From the NCBI GenBank assembly GCA_041662205.1, contig JBAZSZ010000001.1:295978-359977 (forward strand): a stretch of 64,000 nt of DNA, written 5' to 3'. Positions 6,546 through 62,071 of this stretch are shown here, piece after piece; the stretch's first letter is position 1, and each line of letters starts with the position of its first letter. Made by a program: the position numbers and the translations under genes. The stretch is from Minisyncoccota bacterium. GTDB taxonomy: Bacteria > Patescibacteriota > Minisyncoccia > Phycocordibacterales > UBA9973. The notes under the pieces are model-generated. The model searched no databases. It had not been told where the DNA came from and was given only the letters and a program-made list of their open reading frames with translations.

Positions 6546-6583
6546 ATATTGATTATTTTAACATAAAATTACCTCACCCCCTA

Positions 6584-6608
6584 CCCCTCTCCTCATAAAG
6601 GAGAGGGG
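6584..6608. repeat. GC-rich hairpin CCCCTCTCC-N7-GGAGAGGGG immediately after stop of Cys-rich protein A, 38 nt upstream of ATPase-1 start
   Basis: 9-bp perfect inverted repeat in AT-rich context, seen directly. Confidence 0.6.
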
Positions 6609-12028: not shown

Positions 12029-12061
12029 ATACTATACATTTTACAACAAAATTACCAAAAC

Positions 12062-12086
12062 AAAAAGCCCTATAAGGGGCTTTTTG
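12062..12086. terminator. Hairpin AGCCC-TATAAG-GGGCT flanked by A-run and T-run (bidirectional intrinsic terminator) between secreted-protein gene and ATPase-2
   Basis: seen in sequence. Confidence 0.5.
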
Positions 12087-12107
12087 TTTTGGTAAAAGAA
12101 AATTATA

Positions 12108-13322: not shown

Positions 13323-13409
13323 TTTTTTATTTTAATTAATAATAGATAACAAAAATTATACCATATTTTAATAAAAAAATACTAATTATGGTTTTATTTC
13401 CATCATATT

Positions 13410-13431
13410 AAAAGCCCCTTAAGGGGCTTTT
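13410..13431 (-). terminator. Intrinsic terminator after dnaK (AAAAGCCCCTTAAGGGGCTTTT)
   Basis: perfect 7-bp GC stem with flanking A/T runs, ends 9 nt after dnaK stop codon. Confidence 0.7.
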
Positions 13432-13439
13432 AATATGAT

Positions 13440-16013: not shown

Positions 16014-17756
16014 CTAGTAAATCTCCTGTTGATAGCATTTTTCACAATAAACTATCTCTGGCCTCTCAGGCGCATAACTCGTTTCAAATTCTATTTCACA
16101 TTTACTTTCGTGAGTATGATTTTCTTTTTCACACATACAAGTTCTTTTCCATAATTTCCATGCTGGTAATTGATAAAACCTTTCATAATATCTACAATTG
16201 GGACACAAAATCGGGAGCGGTATTTTATTTTTCTTATAAAAATCAAGTTCAAAATTTGCTAAACGAAAAGCGATATTGCATTGATGAATACAACTTCCCT
16301 TGTGTGCACATTCTAATACTTCTCCTAAAATTTTATCATCTACTTCATCTATTGTATCGGGAATATTTTCTACAGGTATGGTAATCTGGAAATTCTTTAC
16401 ATCTTGCTCTAACCATCGATAACCGTTTTTTTCTACTTCTGTTTTAGTCATTGGATTAATTTCTTGGGCAAAAGTTTCGTTGTAAGCAAAAGGACAGACT
16501 TCTATAGGAAAAAATTCTCCATATTTATAAACTCTACCCGCCTTGTCCACAAAAGGTATATTTTCCATTTGTTTTATAATTTCTAAGCGAAGTTTATCAA
16601 ATTCATCTTTTGAACAAATTTTATTGAAAATTACATTTTCTTTATTTCTTATTCCAATACAACCAAATAAATTTGAGCTATTAATACAAGAATCAGTATA
16701 CTCCACATTGCTGACAGAACTAAAAGCGGAATGAGAAAATTTCACATTATAATCATTTAGAGATCCAGTAACATATTCATACATCAATTCTGACTTCATT
16801 GCCTGAGAAGAATCCATGGAATCCTTAAAAGACTCCAATACTCTATAACAGTATTTCAAATTTTCCGCATTGTAAACATCAAAACAATTTTGACAATTTT
16901 TTACATTTGAAAGATTATTTCCAGTAGCGTTTACTGAACGTACAATGTTAGTAAAACGATAAATAGATTTTTCTTTTATTTCTTTAAATTCCTTAAGAAA
17001 AACTTCCAGAGAATCCCTGCTTGATAAATTTAATCTTTCTTTTTCTTTTAAATATTCTTCTTTTGAATACTGCTTATTGCGAATATAAAATTCTTTATTA
17101 CGTAAATTGTAAGAAAGTAAGCAATTGCTACAGTTTACACAATCAACTAAAAAATAAGAATCTAAACAATTTTTTGAAAGTAATAAATACTGACAATTGT
17201 AATTTTTCTCACTTTGAATATTCTCATATAAATTTTGCCCTTCGTTAATATTTAAGCAATCAATAATGTCCGTAGACTTATCTACATTCTTTGAATAAAA
17301 AACATTTTCTGAACCCTTAACGACCGAAAATGATAAATAAACATTCTTAGACTCACCCGCATAATTTGTATAATCAGAGTTAATTACATTTCTATGCCAC
17401 AAAGCTAATCGAGGCACGACATTCATTAATTTATTAAATTGCTCAAAAAATGGTCTAGAAAAATCATAATCTCTACTAAAAGAAGTGGCTTCCCAACCAT
17501 CTCCAAACCAACATTCTCGACAATATACAGGGAAAGGCACGGATTCATGGTACATTGAAATAATGTTTTTCTTACACAAATCACATTTACGTTTATATAA
17601 AGTTCTTTCATTACGCCAAGCCATTCTCCTTTGCAACCTACACCAAGGACAAAAAGTAGGTGCGGGAACTTGTATCTTTTTGTAATAATTAAAATCTTCT
17701 GGCTCTATTTTAAAGTCTTTTTTGCAATTCTGGCAATTTTTAGTTTCACTTTTCAT
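16014..17756 (-). CDS. Cys-rich multi-zinc-ribbon protein, paralog C
   Basis: 580 aa; N-terminus CQNCKKDFKIEPEDFNYYKKIQVPAPTFCPWCR..WRNERTLYKRKC; tail FETSYAPERPEIVYCEKCYQQEIY; start 1 nt after paralog D stop. Confidence 0.8.
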   Translation of the reverse strand: MKSETKNCQNCKKDFKIEPEDFNYYKKIQVPAPTFCPWCRLQRRMAWRNERTLYKRKCDLCKKNIISMYHESVPFPVYCRECWFGDGWEATSFSRDYDFSRPFFEQFNKLMNVVPRLALWHRNVINSDYTNYAGESKNVYLSFSVVKGSENVFYSKNVDKSTDIIDCLNINEGQNLYENIQSEKNYNCQYLLLSKNCLDSYFLVDCVNCSNCLLSYNLRNKEFYIRNKQYSKEEYLKEKERLNLSSRDSLEVFLKEFKEIKEKSIYRFTNIVRSVNATGNNLSNVKNCQNCFDVYNAENLKYCYRVLESFKDSMDSSQAMKSELMYEYVTGSLNDYNVKFSHSAFSSVSNVEYTDSCINSSNLFGCIGIRNKENVIFNKICSKDEFDKLRLEIIKQMENIPFVDKAGRVYKYGEFFPIEVCPFAYNETFAQEINPMTKTEVEKNGYRWLEQDVKNFQITIPVENIPDTIDEVDDKILGEVLECAHKGSCIHQCNIAFRLANFELDFYKKNKIPLPILCPNCRYYERFYQLPAWKLWKRTCMCEKENHTHESKCEIEFETSYAPERPEIVYCEKCYQQEIY

Positions 17757-17757
17757 A

Positions 17758-19434
17758 TCAAGCTATATTTTGTTTATAACATTCTTCGCAAGCAATTTTC
17801 TGGTATCCCCATTCCGGCAAATAATATGCATCGACATCCTTTTTACAATAAAAACATTTATATTGATGTGCTTGCAAGATAGTCAAATATTTCAAACTAT
17901 TTTTTATTCGCACATCAAAATGATAACGTGGAAGTGGGATATTATTTTCTTTGTAAAAAGAAAGTTCATTTTGGGCAATATTGAAACGCCAGCCCGTTTC
18001 AGGGCAAATCAGTGCCTGAGTGATGATAGTATTCGGAACGTCTTTGATATCGTCAGGCAACTCCGCTGTAGGCATGCCGTCTACATGACTCTCTGTGACA
18101 TCCTCCCAATAACCGCCAAATTTTAAAATATCTTCTTTTTTAGTTTCTGGAAAATACAGAAAAGCAGTAGAAAAATTAAAAGGTCCCAAGCTCATGGAAT
18201 AAGGTAAAAATTTCCCATATTCTCCACTCTTTTTCATATCAGAAATTATCTTATTTTTTAAAGTTTCATATTCTTCTTTACTATACTGTTTGTTTAAAAT
18301 ACAATATTTCTTTTTCCCCAAACCCACACAACCAAAACAATATTCACATTCAAGACATAGATCTAAATATTCAGAATATCTTGAGGACGACCAACTGGAA
18401 TATTTGAGAGCATAACCACTTGGTTGGCAGGAACTACAATTGCCTGATACTTCTAAATACTGACAACCATTTATGTCGACGCAAGACTCTAATCCTGTGC
18501 CTCTGATACAGTTAGAGCAATCCTTAGAATCAGAGATTGTGAAACAATTTTGGCAATTTTTACAATCAATTAAGTAATCGCCAATGGAATTGAAAACTTT
18601 TAAATTGAAGTTCGGTCTATGCGCCACCTCATTTTTAATTATTTCTTTAAAATGTTTTTTAAGTTTTTGAATAGAATCATAAGAACCAAGATTAAATAAT
18701 TGGATTTTTTTATCATATTCCTCCTTAGAATACTGCACATTTTCTATACAATAGGATTTATTGCGAAGATTCCAACACATAAAACAATTTTGACAGTTTC
18801 GGCAATCATATAAAAAACTTGATTGTATGCAATCGCGGGAATGTTTCGAATAAAAAAGTTTGTAGGAATGATGACATTCAGAAGAATCAAAACATTTTTC
18901 ACTATTATAACAAACAACCACATCAATAGAATTTTTTACCCCTATATTCCTATATGAATAAAATAAATTTTCGCAATCTACCATTGAACGAGAAAGATAA
19001 CTATCCTTACAATTCCAAACATCATCACACCAATCACAACCTGTACTTTTAATACCATCTTGATGCGGACGAGGAACTTTCTCTTGAAGATTTTGTAATT
19101 GCTCAAAAAATAATTTTTTTTCGTCATAGTCTGCCCCATAATCCATCGCGTCCCACTTGTCGCTATACCACTCATTTAAAGTGTAAATCGGATATCTAGT
19201 CTTCTCTGGTAAAACGGTAATTAAACTTTCTCCAGAGAGATCTGATTTACCCCTGCGAAATTTTCCAAACATCCAAAAAGATAAATGTAATTTTACTCGA
19301 CAAAAAAAACAAAGTGTCGGTAATTCAATATCAACTTTTTTATATAAAGATAATTCTTCTTCTGTAATTAAGAAGTCTCGTTTGCAGTGTTCACAAACTC
19401 TAGTTTGCAGGTCCTTTGTATTCATATACATCAA
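17758..19434 (-). CDS. Cys-rich multi-zinc-ribbon protein, paralog D (most divergent)
   Basis: 558 aa; CEHCKRDF..LSLYKKVDIELPTLCFFCR; CRNCQNCFMCWNLRNKSYC..YSKEEY repeats; start overlaps grpE 3' end by about 25-35 nt. Confidence 0.75.
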   Translation of the reverse strand: MMYMNTKDLQTRVCEHCKRDFLITEEELSLYKKVDIELPTLCFFCRVKLHLSFWMFGKFRRGKSDLSGESLITVLPEKTRYPIYTLNEWYSDKWDAMDYGADYDEKKLFFEQLQNLQEKVPRPHQDGIKSTGCDWCDDVWNCKDSYLSRSMVDCENLFYSYRNIGVKNSIDVVVCYNSEKCFDSSECHHSYKLFYSKHSRDCIQSSFLYDCRNCQNCFMCWNLRNKSYCIENVQYSKEEYDKKIQLFNLGSYDSIQKLKKHFKEIIKNEVAHRPNFNLKVFNSIGDYLIDCKNCQNCFTISDSKDCSNCIRGTGLESCVDINGCQYLEVSGNCSSCQPSGYALKYSSWSSSRYSEYLDLCLECEYCFGCVGLGKKKYCILNKQYSKEEYETLKNKIISDMKKSGEYGKFLPYSMSLGPFNFSTAFLYFPETKKEDILKFGGYWEDVTESHVDGMPTAELPDDIKDVPNTIITQALICPETGWRFNIAQNELSFYKENNIPLPRYHFDVRIKNSLKYLTILQAHQYKCFYCKKDVDAYYLPEWGYQKIACEECYKQNIA

Positions 19435-20006: not shown

Positions 20007-20035
20007 AAAAATACCCCTATTTTCAAGGGGTATTT
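20007..20035 (-). terminator. Intrinsic terminator after rpsI (AAAATACCCCTATTTTCAAGGGGTATTTT)
   Basis: 8-bp stem ACCCCTAT/TCAAGGGGT with flanking T/A runs, 6 nt after rpsI stop. Confidence 0.65.
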
Positions 20036-20040
20036 TAGAA

Positions 20041-22243: not shown

Positions 22244-22274
22244 CCCACTCTGCCCCGCGAGCGGGGCAGAGTGG
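22244..22274. repeat. GC-rich perfect palindrome CACTCTGCCCCG-CGA-CGGGGCAGAGTG between rpsD and rpoA
   Basis: 12-bp arms, seen directly; related motif at 25566 and 54329. Confidence 0.7.
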
Positions 22275-22891: not shown

Positions 22892-23326
22892 TTATACTCT
22901 TCTTGGCTTCTTAGCTTTTGGACCATTGTGAGGAACTGGAGTTGCATCTAATATGGAAGTAATTTCTATACCATGAGCCATAAAGGCTCTAACAGCAGGC
23001 TCCCGACCAGACCCAACACCCAAGATAACCACATCAGCATCTTTTACACCAAGAGCTTCTGCTTTACCGCCAATAATATCTCCTACCTTTCCGGCTGCAA
23101 ATGGAGTTCCCTTTTTTGCTCCTCTAAAACCTAAGCTTCCAGCACTTGACCAAAATAAGGTATTGCCTAATTTATCTGAAAAAAGAACTTTCGTATTATT
23201 AAAGGTAGCTTCAACATGTAAAACACCAGAATTAATTTTCTTTTTTGCTGTTTTTGATGAAACTTTTTTTGTTTCTTCTATCCCAGCTTCCTCTTTTTTT
23301 TCTTCAGTTATTTTTGTTTTTGGCAT
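22892..23326 (-). CDS. rpsK: 30S ribosomal protein S11
   Basis: GVLHVEATFNNTKVLFSD...FRGAKKGTPFAA. Confidence 0.92.
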   Translation of the reverse strand: MPKTKITEEKKEEAGIEETKKVSSKTAKKKINSGVLHVEATFNNTKVLFSDKLGNTLFWSSAGSLGFRGAKKGTPFAAGKVGDIIGGKAEALGVKDADVVILGVGSGREPAVRAFMAHGIEITSILDATPVPHNGPKAKKPRRV

Positions 23327-23359
23327 TCGTAATTCGTAATTTATAATTCGTAATTGATC

Positions 23360-25559: not shown

Positions 25560-26759
25560 TTATACTTGCCCCGATATGGCGGGGTAAATTAAAAAACGAT
25601 TAATATAAACAGAATCAATGACTGAAAAAGGTTCACGAAATACATTCTCTTTAAATACTACATTTCCTTCGAGTATCTTTGAATTTAAGAAAATAATCTC
25701 AAACTTTGATTCTGTTAAAGTGTATTGGCTAAATTGCTCAGTTTTTATTGTTTCAGAAAAAAAATCTACTAAATCTTTATCGATAACTATATATATAGTC
25801 GATGGAATAGAAATGTCATTCGATAAATTAGCTAAAGAGTCTTGAAATTTATTCAACCATTCTGTTCTTAATTTATTTAAAATTATTGTGAGTTTTTTGG
25901 CTATTGCTTCTTCTGCATGTCCATCTTTAAAAAGAGAAATAAAAGATTCAGCTTCGCTCAAGGAACAATTTAAATCTAAAGCGACTCCACGTGTTAGAAA
26001 ATTACACCCGAGAGGAAAAGACGCCGACTCACGCATTATATCCTTCTTTACCATAGAAATATCGGTCACCTCTCCACCTATTTCTAATAAAAGAAAGTTC
26101 TCTTGTTTTTTATATATATCACGCACTGTTGTAAAAAAAGATAATAAAAAAGAAACAAATTTTATTTGTTTAAAGTGAAAATATTTACCTATTGTATCCT
26201 CAATTTCTTTTAGTATTTGTTCTCCGCTCATAGAAATAAAAATATTCATTTCTAATTCCTTAATTTTTTTATTTAAAGATTCAGATGTTTCATAACCATT
26301 TAATGTTATTTTGATATTTTTGAGTTCGATCATTCGGACTTTATTTTTATAATTACCGAATTCAAGAGCATTTTCCTCTTCAAGAAGTTTTATTTCTTTT
26401 TGTATTAATTCATCAGCTAATTTTTCAGTAAATATAAAAGGAGTATTTTTCTTTAAATTGATTATTCTTGTTTGAGAAACACACCAAGGTGAAGATAATA
26501 CACAAAAAACATGTGAGGGTGCGCCCAAGCCTGCTTTGTAAATTTTTTCAACAACAATTTCTAGTGATTTTATTGTTGATAATAAAAAATTATTAATATC
26601 AACTTTTTCTTCTATTTTTATCAACTCTTTAATAGAGAAAATTATTTTAGGAGTTCCAGAATTTTGAGCTTCAAAAAGTGCTCCCTCTATAGAGGAAGAT
26701 CCAATATTAAAAACTAACACTAATTCACTTTTTTCTTTAAGTTTAGAAAAAATACTCAT
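25560..26759 (-). CDS. Actin-fold ATPase, FtsA/PilM-like
   Basis: LVFNIGSSSIEGALFE phosphate-1-like motif; LEIGGEVTDISMV (cf. DIGGGTTD) and FPLGCNFLTRGVALDLNCSLSEAE (cf. FtsA/PilM IPIGG..IT.DIA..L....EAE). Confidence 0.5.
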   Translation of the reverse strand: MSIFSKLKEKSELVLVFNIGSSSIEGALFEAQNSGTPKIIFSIKELIKIEEKVDINNFLLSTIKSLEIVVEKIYKAGLGAPSHVFCVLSSPWCVSQTRIINLKKNTPFIFTEKLADELIQKEIKLLEEENALEFGNYKNKVRMIELKNIKITLNGYETSESLNKKIKELEMNIFISMSGEQILKEIEDTIGKYFHFKQIKFVSFLLSFFTTVRDIYKKQENFLLLEIGGEVTDISMVKKDIMRESASFPLGCNFLTRGVALDLNCSLSEAESFISLFKDGHAEEAIAKKLTIILNKLRTEWLNKFQDSLANLSNDISIPSTIYIVIDKDLVDFFSETIKTEQFSQYTLTESKFEIIFLNSKILEGNVVFKENVFREPFSVIDSVYINRFLIYPAISGQV

Positions 26760-30761: not shown

Positions 30762-30797
30762 GTTTTTTTATTTGATTTAGTAAAATCACCTACCAAG

Positions 30798-31739
30798 TTA
30801 AATATTAGTTAAATATTTTTTTATATTTGCACGATGCTCAGCAAAAGTTTTTGCATAATATATTTTACCATTTTTATCATGAAGATAATAAAAGTAAGGT
30901 GAGCTTTGTGGATGAATAGCTGCTAATATCGCAGCAAGACCTGGATTCCCTATCGGGCTTTTTGGTAATCCTTTTGTTTTATAGGTCAAGGGAGCAGCAT
31001 CTACTTGAAGAGGCATTCCTTTAGAGATTCTTTTCCATAAGATTCCGGAAATTATTTCCCGATCCATGTCACCTTTTGATTCTTTTTCAATAATTGAGGC
31101 CATGATAATGATATCCTTTTCAGACTTACCAGATAAGGTAATCTCTGGAAGCAGAGGAGTAATTTTTTTATTAAAATTTTCAGTCATTGATTTTATGACA
31201 TTGGTTTCGTTTGCATTAGTAAAGAAAAAATAAGTATCAGGAAAAAGATACCCTTCTAAGTCTTTAGCTCCAACAAAAAATTTGGCCTTATCAAAATTTT
31301 CTAATTTTAAAGAAGCAATATCTCCAATTTGTTTTATATCAAAACCCTCTGGAATCGTTATCACTACGGGTACAGTTCGATGTTCACCTCCAGTGATACG
31401 TCTAGCAATTTCAAAAACAGATAATTTCTTTTCAAATAAATAATCAGCAGATATTATATGTTTTTCTCCTCCATAAATCATTACAAAAAATTCAAATATT
31501 TGCATTGAGGAAATTACATGCTCTTGTTTTAGTTGTAAGGACACACTCCGCAAGCTCACCCCAGTTTCTATTTTTATTACATTATTAACTGGAAAATCCG
31601 ACGGCGCGGTAAAAAATAGAAAATAAAAAAAAGCTAAAAAAATAACAACACCTAATATATGAAAAATATTTTTGTTCTGCATATATTTATATTGGCAAAT
31701 TTGTTGGAGGAGAAGCTTCTTTGGACTCAATACGTTCAA
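30798..31739 (-). CDS. mltG: Endolytic murein transglycosylase MltG (YceG family)
   Basis: N-terminal TM, C-terminal KGLPKSPIGNPGLAAILAAIHP...YYLHD..G...FA.T..EH. Confidence 0.8.
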   Translation of the reverse strand: MNVLSPKKLLLQQICQYKYMQNKNIFHILGVVIFLAFFYFLFFTAPSDFPVNNVIKIETGVSLRSVSLQLKQEHVISSMQIFEFFVMIYGGEKHIISADYLFEKKLSVFEIARRITGGEHRTVPVVITIPEGFDIKQIGDIASLKLENFDKAKFFVGAKDLEGYLFPDTYFFFTNANETNVIKSMTENFNKKITPLLPEITLSGKSEKDIIIMASIIEKESKGDMDREIISGILWKRISKGMPLQVDAAPLTYKTKGLPKSPIGNPGLAAILAAIHPQSSPYFYYLHDKNGKIYYAKTFAEHRANIKKYLTNI

Positions 31740-46240: not shown

Positions 46241-46648
46241 ATGATAAAAAGAACTGTGTTTTTAATATCTCTAGCCCTTATCTTAATATTTGGGGTGGTC
46301 TGGGGTTCACATTGGGCAACAAAATGGTACGAAAAAAAAGAAACAAAAAAGGTAGAAGGGTTAAAAGCGAAGGAACTCACTAAAACTCAGCCACCGGCAA
46401 CAATCAACAGCAAAGGAGGAAAACACAAAACACTGCTTGTCTTCCTACCTAATGGGTGTATTGCAAAACACCTTCAGGGAAGGTGGGAAAGATATCCCAA
46501 AGGAGGAAAGATAAAATTCCTTGACTCTAATGGGAAAGTGGTTTTGATTGATGAGCCAGGTACTTATGTACCCTCATCATTGCCTGCAGGAGAATACAAA
46601 ATCTGCAAAGCAAGTCCCGAAGCATGGGGCGTTGAGATCTGGGAGTAA
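46241..46648 (+). CDS. Membrane-anchored small protein co-transcribed with SPFH gene (possible NfeD-like partner)
   Basis: N-terminal TM, 135 aa, start 3 nt after SPFH stop. Confidence 0.4.
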   Translation: MIKRTVFLISLALILIFGVVWGSHWATKWYEKKETKKVEGLKAKELTKTQPPATINSKGGKHKTLLVFLPNGCIAKHLQGRWERYPKGGKIKFLDSNGKVVLIDEPGTYVPSSLPAGEYKICKASPEAWGVEIWE

Positions 46649-46685
46649 TGGCCAATATCGTGTCTGGCCAACACAAAACAAAAAA

Positions 46686-46721
46686 AGGGCAGACTCGTGT
46701 TTTACACACAGTCTGCCCTTT
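46686..46721. terminator. Bidirectional intrinsic terminator (GGGCAGACT...AGTCTGCCC) between convergent genes
   Basis: 9-bp perfect stem, A-run 5' and T-run 3'. Confidence 0.7.
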
Positions 46722-46737
46722 CTCATTTTTACTTTTT

Positions 46738-47067
46738 TTATTGACTCAAATTCACTGTTCCATTTTCTGGATCTATTTGACTTTCATTTATTCCCAAAGT
46801 ATTTAATACAATACTGAGAATAGTCCAAACTCCCATCATGATAGTGATACCAATAATTCCCCAAATCATATGATTTCTGCCAGCTGTCTTTTTATCTGCT
46901 TCTTCTTGATTGGAAAGAAATTGAAATACACCATAAAGAAAATACACAATAGCTAAAGCAAAGAGGAGCTCAATAAGTGGATTGATAATCATATTATCAA
47001 TCTTGCCGATAAAATCATTCAAGCCAGAACTAGCTCCATAAGCTATCTTTGTAGAAAAAAAATCCAT
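46738..47067 (-). CDS. VirB2/TrbC-like two-TM pilin-like protein, paralog 5
   Basis: two hydrophobic helices separated by charged loop NQEEADKKTAGRNHMIWGIIG. Confidence 0.55.
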   Translation of the reverse strand: MDFFSTKIAYGASSGLNDFIGKIDNMIINPLIELLFALAIVYFLYGVFQFLSNQEEADKKTAGRNHMIWGIIGITIMMGVWTILSIVLNTLGINESQIDPENGTVNLSQ

Positions 47068-47075
47068 ATTTCAAT

Positions 47076-47459
47076 TTATTGTATTGTAGGTAAAACAATA
47101 CTATCAGCATTAGTACCAGTAAGCCCAAAAGTATTAGTCAATATTCTTACGAGTCCCCATAAAGCTACGATAACTGCAAAACCAATAATACCATAAATAA
47201 TTCTGTCTCTACCTTTTGATTTTGCTTCTTCATCATCATTGATAACATAGCTGACGACTCCCCAGACAAAAAATACAACTGCCAAGGCAATCAAAACTGG
47301 AACGACAGCATTAAGGAGCTGACTAATTTTACACATTATTCCTCCTATGTCACTAATCTGTCCTGCATTACAAGGACCAGTACCCACAGTCGCTGCTAAC
47401 GCAGCCACTGGAGCTAAACCCAAAACAAAACCTGACAATGCAATTAATTTCTTTTTCAT
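47076..47459 (-). CDS. VirB2/TrbC-like pilin-like protein, paralog 4 (with signal peptide)
   Basis: signal peptide ..PVAALAA; VVFFVWGVVSYVINDDEEAKSKGRDRIIYGIIGFAVIVALWGLV. Confidence 0.6.
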   Translation of the reverse strand: MKKKLIALSGFVLGLAPVAALAATVGTGPCNAGQISDIGGIMCKISQLLNAVVPVLIALAVVFFVWGVVSYVINDDEEAKSKGRDRIIYGIIGFAVIVALWGLVRILTNTFGLTGTNADSIVLPTIQ

Positions 47460-47572
47460 AATTTTTCTAAAAACACTTTTTAATAATTTTATCCGCCTTT
47501 GGCGGAAAAGCGACCTAATAATAAACTAATAATATCTTTTAATTATAACCTCTCATAAAAATCAAAGCAAAT

Positions 47573-48160
47573 TTATTGAGGGGGGACGACCCTTGGGAGA
47601 ATTGACGTATTTAGATCAAAAGTACTGCCAAGAATTCCGACCAATCCCCAAACAGATAACATCACCGCTAAAGCAACAATCCCCCAGATCATAAATTCCT
47701 TGCCTTGTTCCCTCTTTGCTTCTTCATCAGCATTAATAATAAAAAATTGCACTACACCCCAAATAAACATAATGGTAGCTAATGCAAAAATCAAAGGAAT
47801 AATTGAGTCACTAATAATTTTAGTGATATAACACAAAACGTCTTGAAATTTAGGATTACCAGCTAGACTACAAGAAGTAGAATTTACGGTACTAACTAAA
47901 GGTTCAAGTGTGGGAGCAGTAGTATCAAGATCAAAAGTGTTAACCACAATATTTACCAACCCCCATAAAGCAGTGATAACAGCAAAACCAATAATACCAT
48001 AAATAATTCTGTCTTTACCTTTGGCCTTAGCCTCCTCCTCATCTGCGATGACGTATTGCACCACTCCCCAGACAAAATAAACCACCCCGAGAGCAACTAA
48101 AACCGGTAGGATGGAATCAAGAATATCTTTAAACTGTACTATTAAATCTTGTATGTCCAT
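47573..48160 (-). CDS. Tandem-duplicated (fused double) pilin-like protein, paralog 3
   Basis: two consecutive copies of ..VYFVWGVVQYVIADEEEAKAKGKDRIIYGIIGFAVITALWGLV.. / ..IMFIWGVVQFFIINADEEAKREQGKEFMIWGIVALAVMLSVWGLV.. Confidence 0.6.
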   Translation of the reverse strand: MDIQDLIVQFKDILDSILPVLVALGVVYFVWGVVQYVIADEEEAKAKGKDRIIYGIIGFAVITALWGLVNIVVNTFDLDTTAPTLEPLVSTVNSTSCSLAGNPKFQDVLCYITKIISDSIIPLIFALATIMFIWGVVQFFIINADEEAKREQGKEFMIWGIVALAVMLSVWGLVGILGSTFDLNTSILPRVVPPQ

Positions 48161-48180
48161 AATTTATAATTCGTAATTAA

Positions 48181-48558
48181 TTATAATAATCCTTTCACTG
48201 TCGCTTCTATCATCTTGGCTATAGCAAATGATCCTAATAATATTCCAGCGCCGATCAATGTCCAGACAAGCGCGTCTTTAGCTTTAGTTAATTCTTCTGA
48301 ATTACCTTGAGCTTTTACAAAAAGAAAACCACAGTAAATGATAGCAAGGGCTATGATCGGAATACCGATCATCAGTACACCTTCTAAGATTTTTTGAACA
48401 AGTCCTGAGATTGAAGTTATGCTAGGAATTGGGTTTATAATTTTGCCCTGAGTAGGATCAGTATTGGGACCATCGGCTAAAGAAATAACTGGAACAATAA
48501 ACACATAAACTAGAAAAATAATCTTCTGCCAACTTTTATTAATAAATTTCATCTTCAT
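48181..48558 (-). CDS. Pilin-like protein, paralog 2 (with signal peptide)
   Basis: signal peptide, ...IYCGFLFVKAQGNSEELTKAKDALVWTLIGAGILLG. Confidence 0.5.
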   Translation of the reverse strand: MKMKFINKSWQKIIFLVYVFIVPVISLADGPNTDPTQGKIINPIPSITSISGLVQKILEGVLMIGIPIIALAIIYCGFLFVKAQGNSEELTKAKDALVWTLIGAGILLGSFAIAKMIEATVKGLL

Positions 48559-48564
48559 ATTATA

Positions 48565-48972
48565 CTATGGAAAAGGATTGAAACCAATCCAATCACCCTC
48601 GTAACCCAAGATTGATAAAATCGTTCTAATAATTATAAAAGCAGCCAATGCAATTATCAACCCAAGGACTGTATTAGTAAAAACGGATTTCATCCTATTC
48701 TTTGCTTCCGTTGATCCTCCTGATGTAACCATCAGAAAGCCAGCATAAGCGAACATAATAGCTGAAATAGGAATAACTAAATCAAAAAGAATAAATTTAA
48801 TTACTTTATTTATTAATGCCATAAATGCATTGAAGTCACAAAGGTTCTCAGCTGAATTATCACAAGGAACTAAGCCCAAACCATCTGCACTCGCTAAAGA
48901 AATGACAGGAATAATAAGAATTAAAAATATTAAGAATGAAATTATATTTTTTTTTGTTTTTTGCATAATCAT
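48565..48972 (-). CDS. Pilin-like protein, paralog 1 (with signal peptide)
   Basis: signal peptide ..PVISLASA; ..IMFAYAGFLMVTSGGSTEAKNRMKSVFTNTVLGLIIALAAF. Confidence 0.5.
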   Translation of the reverse strand: MIMQKTKKNIISFLIFLILIIPVISLASADGLGLVPCDNSAENLCDFNAFMALINKVIKFILFDLVIPISAIMFAYAGFLMVTSGGSTEAKNRMKSVFTNTVLGLIIALAAFIIIRTILSILGYEGDWIGFNPFP

Positions 48973-48976
48973 TTGT

Positions 48977-49022
48977 TCCCTAAACCTTGCTTAGGGGAAT
49001 TCCCCTAAGCAAGGTTTAGGGA
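48977..49022. repeat. 46-bp perfect palindrome TCCCTAAACCTTGCTTAGGGGA-AT-TCCCCTAAGCAAGGTTTAGGGA centred on GAATTC, 4 nt upstream of the first pilin-like gene's ATG
   Basis: seen directly; overlaps the AGGGAA SD-like element. Confidence 0.85.
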
Positions 49023-49029
49023 CCTGTAT

Positions 49030-50319
49030 TCATTTAAATAATAAAAGACTCAACTTAGTATTGGCATCTTTGACCGCATCAGCTACTGACATATTATTAG
49101 AAATTACCGCATTTGTCATCTCACTAAAAATAACATCAGTATCTTTTGATGATGGGTCGAGCCAGCTCTTGCCATATAAAGCTGAACTATAAAAAATAGG
49201 AGAATAAGCATCTTGTAATTTGATAGCGAGCAAGTCTCGGCGTGCCGGAGGCACACCTGTAACCGTAGTGAACTTTGAAGCAAAATCCCCTGTCGTCATC
49301 AAGCTCGCCGCGAGAAAAGCGGTGCTGATATTTTTAGAAAAGGAAGAAATAGCAATTCCAGTCACTCGAGCCATCGTCACTTTTGAATTAGCATTTTTAA
49401 TTTGAGGAATAGGAGCGACAAAGAAATTTTGATTGGGATTTCTTTTTACCATAGATTGGAGCTCAGAAGCATATCCGAAATAAAAAGCTAAATCCTCTTT
49501 AGAAAAAGCATCGTTCGAATTTGGAAATGACCTATTCCAAGAATATAAAGGATTATTGGGATTCGCAAAATCTGTGTAGAATTTTAACATTGAAGGAAGG
49601 TTGAAATTTCCAATGGATGAGTCTAAAGTCGAAATCAAAGATCCATCTTTTTCTTTTACGATCGGATTGCCTGCCTGCATGAAAAGAGTGGCTAGAATAT
49701 CTTTAAAATGAACTATATTTGAAGAATATCCAAACGCAATGGCGCTTTTAGTTATTTTATTTGAATCATCTTTTTTAGTAAGAGTAGATGTTATGTTTGT
49801 CATCTCATCCCAATAAGCTGGAGGAAAGACAACGCCATTTGCATCAAGCATACTCCTATTGTAATACATCATAAGTGGATCAATAGAGATCGGAAAAGCT
49901 AAAATGCCACCAGAAGTAAGAAACACCTCCCCTGCGCCGGCGAAATTATTCTTGAAAGAAGTGAGGGAATAATTCTCATATGGAATAGCAAAAATTTTAT
50001 TGGCGTAATGAAAAACTAAATCGTCAGACAAGAAGAACATATCCGGTCCTGTGCCCGAAGCAGCCGCTTCGAGTAAATCTTGATCAAAAGTATCAATAGA
50101 TTTTTGGACATAAGAGACGGTAAAAGTAGGATTAGCATTGTTAAAATCCATCATAATATTAGACATCGTGGTATTTGGTACTGTTCCCCATAGAACTACT
50201 TTACCCAAACTCCCTGTGCCAGTCTTCCCGACTGGAATCGCTCCAGAAAAAACCAAAACACCTAAAATAGCCGCAGCAATAAATATAACTAAAATGATTA
50301 CTTGAAAATTTCCTTTCAT
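49030..50319 (-). CDS. Membrane-anchored extracellular solute-binding-protein-like (SBP family 1-like) protein, orphan
   Basis: N-terminal TM, 429 aa, overall SBP_bac_1-like composition and C-terminal pattern; no ABC permease adjacent. Confidence 0.45.
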   Translation of the reverse strand: MKGNFQVIILVIFIAAAILGVLVFSGAIPVGKTGTGSLGKVVLWGTVPNTTMSNIMMDFNNANPTFTVSYVQKSIDTFDQDLLEAAASGTGPDMFFLSDDLVFHYANKIFAIPYENYSLTSFKNNFAGAGEVFLTSGGILAFPISIDPLMMYYNRSMLDANGVVFPPAYWDEMTNITSTLTKKDDSNKITKSAIAFGYSSNIVHFKDILATLFMQAGNPIVKEKDGSLISTLDSSIGNFNLPSMLKFYTDFANPNNPLYSWNRSFPNSNDAFSKEDLAFYFGYASELQSMVKRNPNQNFFVAPIPQIKNANSKVTMARVTGIAISSFSKNISTAFLAASLMTTGDFASKFTTVTGVPPARRDLLAIKLQDAYSPIFYSSALYGKSWLDPSSKDTDVIFSEMTNAVISNNMSVADAVKDANTKLSLLLFK

Positions 50320-50354
50320 GAATTATTTTGGATTTTGCTTGATAACTTTTTGTA

Positions 50355-50870
50355 TTATGACTTAGTTAATATCATACCATAATGATGATCTCCTACATCA
50401 ATTTCTCTTTCCTCAATAAAACCTTTTTTCTTAAACATTTCTAAAGCTTTATCTTTAGGGACTATAATATTTTCACTCATGACTGATGATAGAGACCAAT
50501 CAATCAACAAAACCCTCCCTTTTATTTTCAATATTCTTTTTATCTCTTCAATAAAATTTTCTTTATTTTCTACTTGAAAAAGTATATTTGAAACAATAAC
50601 TGCATCTGCTATACCATCTCCCATCTTCGTTCCCTTGAGTTTCTCTACATCCCCTAAAATAACTTCAACATTGTTTAAATGAGCTTCGAGTATTTTTCTT
50701 TTAATAGTATCTAAAAAATCTTTTTGTAATTCAATTGCATAAACTTTTCCTTTTGGCACAAGTGATCCCAAGGCGACAGAGTAATAACCAGTCCCCGCTC
50801 CTAAATCCGCTACAATATTATCTTCTCTTAATCCAAAGGCTTTTAAATTTTTTACTGGATCAGTGAACAT
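50355..50870 (-). CDS. Class I SAM-dependent methyltransferase
   Basis: motif I VADLGAGTGYYSVAL; 171 aa. Confidence 0.75.
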   Translation of the reverse strand: MFTDPVKNLKAFGLREDNIVADLGAGTGYYSVALGSLVPKGKVYAIELQKDFLDTIKRKILEAHLNNVEVILGDVEKLKGTKMGDGIADAVIVSNILFQVENKENFIEEIKRILKIKGRVLLIDWSLSSVMSENIIVPKDKALEMFKKKGFIEEREIDVGDHHYGMILTKS

Positions 50871-50877
50871 AATTTAA

Positions 50878-53352
50878 TTATATACAAGCGAGAGACGCAA
50901 TGCCATCACCTGAGCGTAAGCGCATTATCGTCACCCCTTGGGTCTGACGACCTAGAGAAGAAATATCTTTTAGAGCTGTACGAATAACTTGTCCTTTCTT
51001 GGACATGGCAATCAATTCTATTTCTTCTCCCATTAAAACTTTTGCCACGATAAGTTTGCCAGTTTTAGGAGTCACTTTGGCTGTTTTTACCCCTGAACCA
51101 CCACGCTTTTGAACCTTATATTCTTTTAAATTTGTTTTCTTACCAAAACCATTCGCACTCATCGTCAAGAATGCACCTACCCCGTCACCTTTTTTTTGAC
51201 TATTTTTTATGACGTCAACTCCGATAACTTCATCAGCCTTACTAAGCCTGATACCGCTCACTCCTCCAGCTGTTCTGCCCATTTCACGGACATCAGACTC
51301 TTTAAATCTAATTGATTGCCCATTTGTTGTAGCAATCATGACCTCATCACCCTTTTCTGTTTGCAAGGCGGCAACAAGCTGATCATCCTTATCTAAGCGA
51401 ATAGCTATAATACCGCTCCTACGTACATCTTTGAAACTTTCAGAAGACATTTTTTTGGCTGTGCCATTTTTTGTAACCAACATAAGCGAAGAAGAAGTTT
51501 TAGTTAAATCTTTTGGCATTGCTAAAATAGAAGTTACTTTTTCTTCAGGAGAAAGCGCTAAAAAGTTCATAATTGATTTACCACGAGTCGCCCTCCTGCC
51601 TTCTGGAATATCATACATTTTCATTTGATAAACTTTACCTAGATTTGTAAAGAAAAGTAAATTGCTATGAGTAGAACCTGAAACAAGCATCGTAACAAAA
51701 TCTTCTTCTTTGGTTTCCAGATCCACCACTCCCACTCCTCCTCTTTTTTGCGCGCGATATTCAGACGGGTCGGTGCATTTCACATAACCGCCTGAAGTAA
51801 GTACAAGCATGGTCTCTTTTTCTGGAATCAAATCTTCATCAGAAATTTCTTTCACTCCACCTTTGACTATTCTAGTTCGGCGTTCATCTGCATATTTTTC
51901 ACGGATTTCTTTCAATTCATCAGCAATCACTTTTAATATTTTTTTTGCGCTAGAAAGTAAATCTTTCATTGACTCAATAAATTTTTGTTTTTCTGCAAGT
52001 TCGTCTTCCACAGCTTTTCTTTCCAGCCCAGCTAATTTGGCTAATTTCATTTCCAAAATAGCAGTCGCCTGTAAATCTGAAAATTTAAATTCTTTTATTA
52101 AATTTAATTTAGCAATTTGAGAATTCTTGGATCCGCGGATTAGAGTAATGACACGGTCTATCTTGTCTAAAGCTTTTTTTAATCCAAGTAAAATATGCTC
52201 ACGTTCTTGTGCTTTTTTCAAATCAAAGGCGGTCCTCCTTTTCACAATTTCTTTTCGATGCTCGATAAATAAGGCCAAGATGGATTTGAGTGAAAGTGTC
52301 TGTGGTACTCCATCTACCAAAGCAACCATATTAAAATTAAAATTTGATTCAAGCTGAGTATTTTTATAAATATAATTCAAAACTTTTTCAGGATGTGCAC
52401 TTCCTTTTAGGTCAATAACAATTCTGATATCTTTTGTAGATTCATCACGAAGTCCCTTGATACCTTCAAGTTTTTTTTCTTGAACTAATTCCGCAATACT
52501 AATTATCAAATTAGCTTTATTTACTCTAAAAGGAATTGAGGTAATAATAATAGAAAAATTACCATCTTTTTGTTCTACTATCTCTGCTTCACCTCGACAC
52601 ACTACTCCGCCCCGTCCTGATCCATATGCGTGGAGCATGTCCTTGTATCCATAAGCAATTCCGCCAGTTGGAAAATCTGGACCTTTCACAAATTGCATTA
52701 AATCTTCTGTCGTGGCCTCGTCGTTTTCAATTAAATAATTTGTAGCATCTAAGATTTCTGCCAAGTTGTGTGATGGAATATTTGTCGCCATACCAACAGC
52801 GATACCGAGCGTACCATTTAAAAGCAAAGCTGGAACAGCCGACGGTAAAACAATTGGTTCTTTGCGTGTTTGATCATAATTTGGACGAAAATCAACAGTT
52901 TCTTTTTCTAAATCTCTTAATAATTCATTGGAAATCTTTGTCATCTTCGCTTCCGTATAACGCATCGCAGCTGCGTTGTCTCCATCGATCGAACCAAAAT
53001 TTCCTTGTCCCCAAATCAAAGGGTAACGATAAGAAAATTCCTGTGCCATTCCAACCATCGTATCGTAAACAGCGGTATCTCCATGTGGATGATATTTTCC
53101 GAGCACATCTCCCACAATCGCTGCTGATTTACGAAAACGCGCCGAAGAAGTAAGTCCCATTTCATTCATCCCAAATAAAATTCTACGATGCACAGGTTTT
53201 AAACCATCCCGTACATCCGGCAAGGCTCGAGAAGTAATAACCGTCATAGCATAAGCTATATAAGATTCTTTCATTTCTACCACGATATCAACTGGCAGAA
53301 TTGTATCTGTCTTTATTTCTCTATTTGATTCAGGTGTATATTTTTTTGCCAT
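50878..53352 (-). CDS. gyrA: DNA gyrase subunit A
   Basis: [30 protein letters not shown]-terminal beta-pinwheel repeats, 824 aa. Confidence 0.95.
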
Positions 53353-53355
53353 CTA

Positions 53356-53562
53356 CTATTGTATTATATTATCTTTTAATATAGAAAAAGGTTTTATATC
53401 TTGGATCATTTTTACTTGAGTATCTGTATTGGTCAAAGTTGTGCCAAGTGAATAAATCCAAAATAAAAATAAAATGACTGCACAGATGATGATAGTAACA
53501 TTTAAAATGTGTCGCTTGACGTGTTCAGGTTGTTTTCTAATGTGATGAATTATTTTTTTCAT
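53356..53562 (-). CDS. Small membrane protein (68 aa) upstream of gyrA
   Basis: single TM ILNVTIIICAVILFLFWIY; stop 4 nt before gyrA start. Confidence 0.35.
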   Translation of the reverse strand: MKKIIHHIRKQPEHVKRHILNVTIIICAVILFLFWIYSLGTTLTNTDTQVKMIQDIKPFSILKDNIIQ

Positions 53563-53614
53563 TTGATTTTACGAGATCATGTCGTGGTATCGTCCATTAA
53601 AGCGCGACACTCTA

Positions 53615-54262
53615 TTATGTAGTTTTTAATATAATTACTTCTCCTTCTTTATTATCTAAATCTTTTCTCTTAAGGGTCAACTTATCCACCGCCTCTGCTT
53701 TCTCTTCTCCTATTTCTTTTAAAAATAATTTCAAGGTGTTTTCATCAAAATCCATTGGAATTATTAATTTTGGTTCAAGAGAAGAAGCTAATTTAGCCGC
53801 CATTTTTGCATCTAAAAAGCCTGTCTCTTTTCCTTTGCCACCTACTGGGATAAAAAGAATATCTGGATTATTTAATGCTTCACGTGATTCTTTGGATAAT
53901 TCTCCTTCAGACAACGCCCCTAAAAATAAAATATCAATATTATCAACCGATAAAGAATAAATAGTATTAATATATTTTTTTTCAGAAATCAATGAATGCG
54001 ACAAAAGTCCTTTAATAAAAATTTCTTTTATTTCGTAATCCCCCGGTCCATTAATGACAAAAGGTGCTCGTTCTCCATGGCTCAACTGTTCAACACCATT
54101 GTAATCAGGATGGTTGGTAGTTATTAAAGCAATATCTGCACCAAAGTGTGCAGATATGCCAGTTTTTGAAGTTTTACTAGCGGGATTAAAAGCTAGAACC
54201 ATCTCTCCTTGTTGTATTTTAAAAAATTGTTTTCCGAAATATGTGATTATCATTGTTTGCAT
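53615..54262 (-). CDS. MBL-fold metallo-hydrolase-like protein (degenerate metal motif)
   Basis: MIITYFGKQFFKIQ..LAFNP...ADIALITTNHPDY.. pattern of Lactamase_B_3/UPF0173 family. Confidence 0.45.
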   Translation of the reverse strand: MQTMIITYFGKQFFKIQQGEMVLAFNPASKTSKTGISAHFGADIALITTNHPDYNGVEQLSHGERAPFVINGPGDYEIKEIFIKGLLSHSLISEKKYINTIYSLSVDNIDILFLGALSEGELSKESREALNNPDILFIPVGGKGKETGFLDAKMAAKLASSLEPKLIIPMDFDENTLKLFLKEIGEEKAEAVDKLTLKRKDLDNKEGEVIILKTT

Positions 54263-55483: not shown

Positions 55484-55506
55484 AAAATTAACTTAAAAAT
55501 AAAAAA

Positions 55507-55528
55507 ATCTCTCAATTAATTGAGAGAT
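55507..55528. terminator. Bidirectional terminator, perfect palindrome ATCTCTCAATT-AATTGAGAGAT with flanking A/T runs
   Basis: seen directly between convergent S1 and glucosaminidase-like genes. Confidence 0.7.
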
Positions 55529-55538
55529 TTTTTTATTT

Positions 55539-56132
55539 TTAAGTAGTTAAATTAGGAGTCACTATTAAATCCGCGTCTCCAATATCATCCATAATAGCTA
55601 TTACTTGCTCGGCATATTTCAACACGATAGAAGGTGGATTGTAAGCATGGAGAATTCCCTTAGTATTTTTATCATCATAATGTTTAGCGGTTCTTGGATT
55701 ATTCCCCCCCAAATTTCTAGCCACAGTTTCAATAGCACTATCAACTGATTTAAATCCGATCTTACAAGAACCCCAACCAAAAGGGTTATTTTTTACTTTT
55801 TTACAAGCAAACTTACCACCAGTAGACTCTCGTACTGCAATAGACGGCAACAGACGCCAATCGAGGTCGTTCTTTTCCGCTTCCTCTACCATTTTCATAC
55901 CAGTTCCTTTAAGGGGCATATCATGTTCAGCAAAATATGCATCGATAGCATTAGCCTTTAATTTTAAGGCCTGCTCAATTTGTTGATCTTTTGCTGGAGC
56001 GGTAATTGCAACTTGTGGTTGATTTACCACGTTAAAACCATTATTCGGAATAGTTCCGAAAGGTGTCATCATTGTCATTATTGGTAAAATAACAAACGAC
56101 TCCACAAACCTTATTGTTTTTGTTTTTTTCAT
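55539..56132 (-). CDS. Glucosaminidase/FlgJ-like peptidoglycan hydrolase domain protein (secreted)
   Basis: signal/TM N-terminus; LLPSIAVRESTGGKF...NNPFGWG resembles PF01832 glucosaminidase core. Confidence 0.5.
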   Translation of the reverse strand: MKKTKTIRFVESFVILPIMTMMTPFGTIPNNGFNVVNQPQVAITAPAKDQQIEQALKLKANAIDAYFAEHDMPLKGTGMKMVEEAEKNDLDWRLLPSIAVRESTGGKFACKKVKNNPFGWGSCKIGFKSVDSAIETVARNLGGNNPRTAKHYDDKNTKGILHAYNPPSIVLKYAEQVIAIMDDIGDADLIVTPNLTT

Positions 56133-61525: not shown

Positions 61526-62071
61526 TTACGTCAAATTGAAATGTTTTCGTAGGTTTTCATCATAATCTAATTTTTCCACTACCATATATCTTATATTTTT
61601 ACCAAAAGCCAAATCAGTTTTCAAAAGTTCAATGAATTCTGCACAATTGTAAGGATAAATCCAGACACTGCGTTGAAGCTGGATAAAACCAAAATCTTTT
61701 ATTTCCATTCGCAAAAGATTTCTTTTAGACCTGGCATTTTCCCAAACATCAAAAATAACCACTCTCCACTTGCCATCCCACTTAACATCTTTCTTTTTTT
61801 CTTTAATCTGATAATAAATAAGTCTTCTCTTCCCCTTCTCAGTCAAGGATAAAAATTGTTTTCCATTTTCAATTTCTATTTTAAGAAAACCGTCTTTTAC
61901 TAATTTTCTCGCCTTTTGGTTTAAATAATATTTTAGGTTATATTTTTTCTTTTGCTTTAAAAAGGGTTTTAAAATTTGTAAAGCATTAGGCGCAAGTACG
62001 GCTATAGCCAAAATACCAGTAGTGGCAACCGTCATTAAAATAACTCTTTTAAAATCAATCTTGTTTTTCAT
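61526..62071 (-). CDS. PaaX_C/Cas2-fold domain protein with N-terminal TM anchor (paralog of 15444-15950)
   Basis: WDGKWRVVIFDVWENARSKRNLLRMEIKDFGFIQLQRSVWIYP; N-terminal VILMTVATTGILAIAVLAPNAL. Confidence 0.55.
   Translation of the reverse strand: MKNKIDFKRVILMTVATTGILAIAVLAPNALQILKPFLKQKKKYNLKYYLNQKARKLVKDGFLKIEIENGKQFLSLTEKGKRRLIYYQIKEKKKDVKWDGKWRVVIFDVWENARSKRNLLRMEIKDFGFIQLQRSVWIYPYNCAEFIELLKTDLAFGKNIRYMVVEKLDYDENLRKHFNLT

Follow-up and report, generated by a model that had tools for sequence, protein, structure and literature searches.

A 46-bp perfect palindrome occupies positions 48977..49022 (− strand) of the 64-kb stretch of DNA that we analysed (the window), where it separates a gene encoding an extracellular solute-binding protein (SBP) from the first of five pilin-like genes. 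The palindrome is real sequence, lies far beyond chance expectation and is found in only one uncultured Paceibacterota genome. We favour, without being confident of it, the reading that it is a transcribed intercistronic hairpin that would uncouple SBP and pilin expression, whether as a barrier to mRNA decay, as an RNase III-type substrate or as a block to coupled translation. A serious rival to this insulator reading is that the palindrome is a functionless REP-like insertion.

The palindrome is perfect through its centre and present in a single genome

The sequence from 48977 to 49022 is exactly TCCCTAAACCTTGCTTAGGGGAATTCCCCTAAGCAAGGTTTAGGGA. The original prediction was right as to the perfect palindrome and its coordinates, but it described two 22-nt arms around a central AT, whereas the symmetry runs through the centre (GAATTC) and gives 23-nt arms with 23+23 complementary bases and no spacer. 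The longest perfect stem at the palindrome is 23 bp, as compared with 12 bp in 20 shuffled windows. When the minus-strand transcript is folded, the palindrome forms a 21-bp stem with an AAUU loop (−40.7 kcal/mol), and the z-score of the fold is −7.1 for the 121-nt context and −12.6 for the SBP–pilin spacer alone. The centroid structure is the same helix, and there is no competing fold. The helix contains no G-U pairs, the outer ends of its arms are GC-rich (TCCC/GGGA), and the same hairpin forms from either strand, which makes it neutral with respect to the strand that is transcribed. No significance could be attached to the EcoRI site at the centre, as this site is not avoided (26 observed versus 21 expected), and a candidate promoter inside the palindrome (TTGCTT-17-CAAGGT) was rejected as falling well short of the TATAAT-like −10 boxes of this genome.

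Fold-back chimeras can produce palindromes during assembly, which makes an artefact a potential explanation. An independent Logan assembly (run SRR18595301) breaks at the centre of the palindrome, into contigs L001 and L002; the SBP-side contig ends ...GGGGAATTCCCCT and the pilin-side contig starts AGGGGAATTCCCCT..., each with its own correct gene flank. We attribute the break to a k=31 graph that meets a genuine palindrome longer than k. A fold-back artefact would not give this pattern. Both flanks are the expected syntenic genes and both halves reappear in the independent assembly, so an origin by fold-back during assembly is very unlikely. We note that perfect palindromes longer than k systematically split unitig assemblies such as Logan's, and that elements of this kind will therefore be under-represented in contig-based surveys.

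Only one copy of the palindrome is present within the 64 kb: no second copy of an arm was found at three or fewer mismatches, and none of 100 shuffles gave matches. The exact 23-mer arm was looked for in 185,579 species genomes without success, no meaningful match to the arm came from IMG/VR or from phages and plasmids, and a blastn-short comparison with 90 related loci returned chance 10-14-mers only. Rfam finds only tRNAs in the window, and no known RNA family at the palindrome. Two matches to a 20-mer of the arm in JGI metagenomes (L003/L004) represent one unrelated Bacteroidota-like locus in which the second arm is absent, and were put down to chance, and a 12/14 resemblance of the arm to pilin 'IWGI' codons was likewise judged coincidental. 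As to the concern that the palindrome might be a common dispersed repeat, the window and the public collections yielded no further copy. Because a single genome carries it, the palindrome offers neither covariation nor a sign of selection, and a helix that is perfect through the loop and free of G-U pairs would be expected of a young or DNA-templated element no less than of a selected RNA.

The palindrome lies between an SBP gene and an array of five pilin genes

Every gene from 46738 to 54262 is on the minus strand. An unannotated 68-aa small ORF encoding a membrane protein (53356-53562) lies upstream of gyrA (50878-53352), which is followed by genes encoding a SAM-methyltransferase (50355-50870), the SBP (SBP_bac_1, 429 aa; 49030-50319, TGA stop at 49030-49032) and the pilins, namely pilin 1 (48565..48972), pilin 2 (48181-48558), pilin 3 (47573-48160), pilin 4 (47076-47459) and pilin 5 (46738-47067). 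All five match TrbC/T4SS_pilin, and the palindrome is, as had been proposed, directly upstream of the first of them. The stem begins 7 nt after the SBP stop codon and ends 4 nt before the annotated start of pilin 1 (ATG 48972). A second ATG, at 48966, lies 10 nt past the stem, and since orthologues begin MQKTKK this is probably the true start of pilin 1. The ORF of pilin 1 is intact and is 73% identical to its orthologue in the relative L005 (70-81% for pilins 2-5), so that pilin 1, being as conserved as its paralogues, is not a decaying gene.

Within the last codons of pilin 1 there is a small terminator-like hairpin with a T-run (48575..48590, −), and this is followed by a TATAAT box (48559-48564, −) that abuts the start of pilin 2. 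The position of the box suggests that pilin 2 probably has its own promoter, and, together with the terminator-like end of pilin 1, that the pilin 1 message is possibly discrete and bounded by two structures. A canonical A/T-tract hairpin terminator (46675..46730), convergent with 46241-46648(+) and with a counterpart conserved in relatives, closes the array.

Patescibacteria are known for tandem arrays of divergent VirB2-like pilins, one of which is reportedly essential (PMC12102498). In the window, two genes for VirD4/TrwB-like coupling-protein ATPases, one of which has a treble-clef zinc finger (5028-6545 and 10067-12028, both −), lie ~37-44 kb from the pilin array, and large proteins without a Pfam match are encoded between or near them (8314-10065, 16014-17756 and 17758-19434). 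The surrounding genes are housekeeping genes, among them those for IF-2, RbfA, ribosomal protein S1, MurC, rpoA, r-proteins, DnaK/DnaJ and ClpB. A separate motif, AATTACGAATTA, occurs twice in tandem (23330-23355) upstream of rpsK (22892-23326) and once (48167-48178, −) upstream of pilin 3; its count is not above chance, as 15/100 shuffles reach three matches, and all three copies abut start codons.

The SBP–pilin junction varies rapidly among relatives

We compared 80 orthologous SBP loci from different GTDB species together with three closer metagenomic relatives. The order SBP-then-pilin is kept at every compared locus. In 37 of the 65 parsed junctions, the SBP stop and the pilin start overlap as ATGA or are separated by no more than 12 nt, typically in the form TAA-nnnn-ATG; the spacer measures 13-25 nt in nine others and exceeds 25 nt in 19. 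SBP and pilin genes thus normally form one tightly coupled unit, which identifies the 57-nt spacer of the window as an insertion. A palindrome-like sequence is absent from all 68 orthologous junctions analysed. Judged by this comparison, the palindrome is a lineage-specific insertion in an otherwise tightly packed SBP–pilin junction and not an ancestral feature.

The nearest relatives each have a junction of their own: a 47-nt two-hairpin cassette of family A (described below) in L005 (SBP identity 88%), a TTCGCCAGAGGCGGA hairpin of family C in L085/86 (85%), a unique 22-nt spacer in L087/88 (83%) and a 3-nt spacer in L006/L089 (82%). In a neighbour-joining tree, too, close sisters differ in junction state, as for L025 (5 nt) and L027 (family A). 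The junction is, by these comparisons, hypervariable, with very fast turnover. Hairpins whose ends lie 0-8 nt before the pilin ATG have been gained there repeatedly: family A five times, family C twice and additionally in L085, a palindrome of REP-like type in L065, and in L068 a structure of 147 nt. Of the 23 spacers that are at least 18 nt long, ten have a fold clearly stronger than that of shuffled sequence (z ≤ −2.5 in six, that of the window included), and in these ten the last paired base is 0-8 nt from the ATG; the remaining spacers of this length are unstructured A/T repeats of family B, with tandem TATAAAGTT units. Almost every speciation step, on this evidence, has reshaped the junction that feeds the first pilin, often by means of hairpins that abut the start codon.

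Family A is a conserved cassette of ~47 nt, (A)GCGTCGCGCTTTAATGGACGATTGCGCGACATGATTTCGTAAAATCA, that ends 0-3 nt before the ATG of SBP, pilin and other secreted-protein genes, always in gene orientation. It forms two hairpins, the second of which can pair with the AUG; across 19 strong copies, 96.9% of cells are paired and three pairs have compensatory changes. The family has no match in Rfam, and its presence differs between very close sister species. Copies in relatives are found in L005 (4273-4337 and 5985-6049), L010, L022, L024, L026, L027, L035, L049, L057, L006, L073, L074, L012, L017 and L047. In the window one copy (53563-53610, −) precedes the 68-aa membrane-protein ORF upstream of gyrA; the covariance model of the family, R1, matches there (53554-53618) and weakly at 30763-30806. 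The palindrome itself was rejected as a member of the family, as R1 gives no match at it. Between the palindrome and the start codon that is probably genuine lie 10 nt, ACAAATGATT (48966-48976), which also create the spurious upstream ATG at 48972 and which resemble the family A segment ACATGATTT that L005 carries at the same spot. The palindrome may have taken the place of a family A cassette of which this stretch is a remnant.

The hairpin TCCGCC-ARA-GGCGGA makes up family C, which many species conserve in the pilin 3–pilin 4 spacer (at ~5900-6200 in L008, L015, L023, L024, L025, L031 and L069); the window also has a copy there (47491-47507), and at the SBP–pilin 1 junction of L033, L064 and L085/86 the hairpin stops 4-5 nt short of the ATG. 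In family B, unstructured units, (T)ATAAAGTT(C/T), recur 2-4 times in tandem immediately upstream of SBP or pilin starts, always in gene orientation. The family is found upstream of the SBP start (~2950-2990) in L017, L022, L053, L072, L074, L083, L012 and L066, and at the junction in L012, L017, L019, L037, L058, L069 and L074; it may be a promoter or a protein-binding array. Families A and C share with the window palindrome, as does a palindrome that flanks a transposase-like gene of the clade (see below), the insertion point between SBP stop and pilin start and a hairpin that ends a few nt before the ATG. These elements are multi-copy, occur in many species and fold at −10 to −18 kcal/mol, whereas the window palindrome is unique, folds at −40.7 kcal/mol and has no sequence similarity to them.

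Mobile palindromes of the clade and the origin of the insertion

The clade possesses a RAYT-like gene (205-224 aa) that is present in 19/80 GTDB loci and in L085/86/89, always divergently upstream of the methyltransferase–SBP–pilin cluster, with 67-78% identity between species. Its product matches Pfam Y1_Tnp (E 6e-12; IS200 only at E 0.002) and, below the cut-off of the model, NCBIfam REP_Tyr_transpos (REP-associated tyrosine transposase; E 2e-16). On either side of the gene stands a palindrome of 21-33 bp, (A)TGTCAARG-N5-CYTTGACA(T), whose loop varies from genome to genome; examples are L085 (235-259 and 880-902), L049 (1150-1172, 1763-1779 and 2400-2430), L028, L045, L062, L023 and L026. 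A variant of this palindrome lies at the SBP–pilin junction of L065 (4246-4272), indicating that mobile REP-like palindromes do land at this spot.

These observations bear on the possibility that the window palindrome is a selfish or neutral insertion without dedicated function, tolerated at a permissive junction and generated either in REP/MITE-like manner by a Y1 (RAYT-type) transposase or as a product of template switching or fold-back repair. Consistent with such an origin, the palindrome is perfect through its centre and confined to a single genome, and the junction turns over so fast that close sisters differ (L025 versus L027, and L005 versus the window). There is, however, neither a second copy nor a Y1_Tnp gene in the 64 kb, where tblastn with the RAYT-like protein gave no match and the RAYT-flanking palindrome family is absent. 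Moreover, the arm is unlike this REP-like family or anything else in the loci of relatives, its 23 bp compare with 8-16 bp in the family, no target-site duplication or flanking direct repeat is visible at the palindrome, and public collections gave no related match. We regard an insertion of this kind as possible, if less than likely. It concerns the origin of the palindrome and is in part compatible with the insulator reading, which concerns its effect.

The palindrome lacks the A/T tracts of the clade's terminators

The palindrome has the GC-rich stem-loop of an intrinsic terminator (11 GC pairs in 23). One possible reading is that it is a terminator without a U-tract, or a strong pause site, at which the SBP transcript stops, so that pilin 1 would be largely silent. 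Its stem comes shortly (7 nt) after a stop codon, in the manner of other 3′ hairpins of this compact genome, and pilin 2 seems to own a TATAAT box. The sequence 3′ of the stem, however, is ACAAAUGA, with 1 U in 8 nt, and a terminator scan of the window did not call the palindrome. By contrast, all seven clear terminators in the window carry A/T tracts (including those at 12052-12095, 13402-13439, 20008-20036, 55491-55544 and 46675-46730), and the same holds for the ~30 perfect hairpins that 559 kb of sequence from relatives contains at stem lengths of ≥12 bp. Nor does the palindrome lie at the end of a transcription unit as judged from relatives, in which SBP and pilin genes form one unit: the flanking genes are closely spaced or overlapping in the 37/65 junctions noted above, and no promoter for pilin 1 fits after the stem, yet pilin 1 is intact and conserved like its paralogues. 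We consider termination at the palindrome unlikely.

The hairpin had been thought far longer than a terminator needs. Length alone does not set it apart, since several terminators of relatives have arms of 19-27 bp and perfect arms of this size are normal in the clade; what does is the absence of an A/T tract. The window itself contains perfect-palindrome bidirectional terminators with A/T tracts at 55491-55544 (27-bp arms), 13402-13439 (19) and 12052-12095 (19), of which 55491-55544 and 13402-13439 have zero spacer and are centred on TTAA/AATT. Similar terminators with 20-25-bp arms are found in L034, L048, L052, L077 and L084. Perfection through the loop in three of the longest hairpins is a hint of a palindrome-perfecting process at the DNA level. 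Like the window palindrome, the bidirectional terminators of the clade are long perfect palindromes in short intergenic gaps directly after a stop codon. They differ in having A-runs and T-runs as the outer parts of their arms and in lying at unit ends or between convergent genes, whereas the palindrome has GC-rich outer ends and no U-run, and is situated inside a conserved gene pair.

Two other GC-rich perfect hairpins without a U-tract come after stop codons in the window, a point that could speak for termination as well. One (22245-22274, 14-bp stem) lies 6 nt after the stop, between rpsD and rpoA, and the other (6583-6609, 11-bp stem) lies 0 nt after the stop, before a VirD4-like ATPase gene. 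Both are inside strings of co-oriented genes, and in each case an AT-rich stretch with a −10-like box separates the hairpin from the next ATG. Their presence makes intercistronic stems a recurring feature of this genome.

Translation appears to start without Shine-Dalgarno pairing

The palindrome had been proposed to sequester the ribosome-binding region of pilin 1, with an SD-like AGGGAA element in its right arm. The letters AGGGA are indeed present in the 3′ arm, but they cannot be taken for an SD element in this genome: across the whole window, an SD core at −18..−5 is found in 3/63 genes, as compared with 4.7 expected by chance. A −10-like box (≥5/6) that ends 4-9 nt before the start is found in 14/63 genes, as compared with 3.5 expected, which amounts to a four-fold excess, and the 30 nt preceding starts have a mean GC of 24%. 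TATAAT-like boxes are seen, for example, near the starts of 50355-50870, 61526-62071 and 25560-26759 and near the second ATG of pilin 2. The lack of SD enrichment together with the near-start −10 boxes points to SD-independent, often leaderless-type initiation. The genome thus appears to initiate without SD pairing, and its sequence suggests that leaderless or very short-leader mRNAs are widespread. In such a genome, translation of internal cistrons must use coupling or new 5′ ends. Our literature search found nothing specific on Shine-Dalgarno usage, leaderless mRNAs or RAYT elements in the CPR.

These features bear on the possibility that the palindrome is a translational switch, in which the 3′ arm hides the ribosome-binding site of pilin 1 until regulated melting turns translation on. 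In support of occlusion, the stem ends 4-10 nt before the start and locks the region from −5 (or −11, counted from the second ATG) to −50, with a probability of being unpaired of 0.16, and the family A cassettes of relatives come to within 0-3 nt of the ATG, with a second hairpin that can pair with the AUG. However, the palindrome leaves the region from −4 to +20, with the AUG and +1..+20, 76% unpaired, while upstream of it −5..−30 is locked (16% unpaired); this genome makes no use of SD elements that could be occluded, and the element is not conserved. Furthermore, a perfect helix of −40 kcal/mol without an alternative fold makes thermometer-like or ligand-driven melting implausible. Neither the proposed SD sequestration nor a switch at the ribosome-binding site is upheld by these data, and we think an occluder unlikely.

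Operator and recombination-site readings

Two further suggestions place the function of the palindrome at the DNA level. According to the first, it is a protein-binding site, either an operator for a dimeric regulator or a target for a cruciform-binding protein. The two-fold symmetry, which is perfect and includes the centre, is what such a site might show, but 46 bp far exceeds typical operators, no promoter fits in the 4-10 nt between the palindrome and the ATG, and the element is lacking at every one of the orthologous junctions. The neighbours, moreover, are housekeeping genes (gyrA, methyltransferase, IF-2, RbfA, S1 and MurC), with no regulator gene nearby. On this evidence we abandon the operator proposal as highly improbable.

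According to the second suggestion, the palindrome is a site-specific recombination site for pilin variation, an idea that gains some appeal from its position beside a tandem array of five divergent pilin genes. Yet the 64 kb contain no partner site, no recombinase signature or domain was found nearby, and there are no shufflon-like (sfx-like) repeats, the repeats of the pilin array reflecting paralogue similarity only. We give recombination, taken together with the assembly artefact considered above, almost no weight.

Discussion

Taken together, our analyses lead us to prefer, with reservations, the reading of the palindrome as an intercistronic insulator. Co-transcription, folding in vivo, nuclease cleavage and indeed every functional step of this model are inferred from sequence. 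Because the two genes are ≤12 nt apart or overlapping in most relatives, SBP and pilin 1 are probably co-transcribed, and the helix would then form inside their mRNA. The mRNA-entry-channel footprint of the ribosome is known and sets its downstream reach; a helix that starts at the eighth base past the SBP stop would be out of reach of the terminating ribosome, so that it would persist on translated mRNA. There it would keep ribosomes from entering pilin 1 by termination-reinitiation or 70S scanning, which would be the usual route by which an SD-less organism gains access to an internal cistron 4 nt away. The helix would also act as an exonuclease barrier from both sides and, with about two turns of perfect double-stranded RNA, would be a plausible substrate for RNase III.

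Some two turns of perfect double-stranded RNA are the minimal RNase III substrate, and the palindrome, as a perfect helix of 21-23 bp, offers the uninterrupted ≥20 bp of an RNase III site; an RNase III signature was not found within the 64 kb. A cut in the helix would give rise to an SBP message with a hairpin cap and a pilin 1 message with a short leader. Overall, the insulator would uncouple the level of SBP from that of pilin 1, in one direction or the other. There are also weak promoter-like matches in the 3′ end of the SBP gene, which means that pilin 1 could have its own transcript, in which case the hairpin would be a 5′ leader element.

A more general possibility is that, in SD-less and largely leaderless Paceibacterota, stop-start junctions before secreted-protein and pilin genes are hot-spots at which unrelated hairpin cassettes (families A and C, the RAYT-type palindromes and the window palindrome) are swapped. 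Such cassettes might act as processing signals that create 5′ ends at the AUG and hence permit leaderless-like translation of internal cistrons, and the palindrome would be an extreme member of an undescribed punctuation class. We put this forward as a speculation that is unlikely to hold.

By itself the palindrome is an oddity of one species, of value because it draws attention to a hypervariable, hairpin-collecting junction and to an SD-less, leaderless-looking genome. Arrays of VirB2-like pilins are widely distributed among Patescibacteria. Should the hairpins set pilin dosage or mRNA processing, they would provide a simple handle on how uncultured ultra-small bacteria express their genes; should they instead be selfish insertions of REP-like type, they would document active palindrome mobility in reduced genomes.

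Several known systems resemble the palindrome in part. RNase III hairpins between cistrons in the early region of phage T7, and processed fimbrial operons such as papBA, give separately stable messages. What these have in common with the palindrome is a long double-stranded stem between cistrons and, for papBA, a pilin subunit with an upstream gene; the T7 and papBA sites, however, are conserved and usually have internal loops, whereas cleavage of the palindrome is putative and the enzyme is not seen in the window. REP/BIME hairpins in enterobacterial operons, of which that of malE-malF is the classic example, stabilise the upstream message. Like them, the palindrome is extragenic, lies just after a solute-binding-protein gene in an operon and has no U-tract, and it would be expected to act as a 3′-exonuclease barrier that leads to unequal expression of the neighbouring cistrons. 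REPs are imperfect and measure ~35 nt, with copies numbering in the tens to hundreds and an associated RAYT gene. The palindrome, by contrast, is a perfect one of 46 bp, has a single copy in the sequence covered, and bears no relation to the clade's own REP-like family.

The co-transcribed palindromic elements of Neisseria provide a further parallel, as their hairpins are established RNase III substrates or determinants of mRNA stability (PMC2649163). These Correia elements (CREEs) are mobile palindromic insertions 5′ of surface-protein genes that become part of the mRNA; their inverted repeats form a hairpin that is bound or cleaved by RNase III, and expression changes between strains (PMC2649163). 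CREEs are 70-157 bp long with a core between the repeats, number 100-250 copies per genome, and can create promoters and bind IHF (PMC2649163). The palindrome is CREE-like so far as it is a palindromic insertion 5′ of a surface-protein gene, but the core, copy number, promoter and IHF features of CREEs are not seen in it. By analogy with REPs and Correia elements, which are selfish in origin and yet alter the fate of mRNA, the origin and the effect of the palindrome may be treated as separate questions. Most likely, then, it is a private, co-transcribed intercistronic palindromic hairpin, a local curiosity and not a new kind of system.
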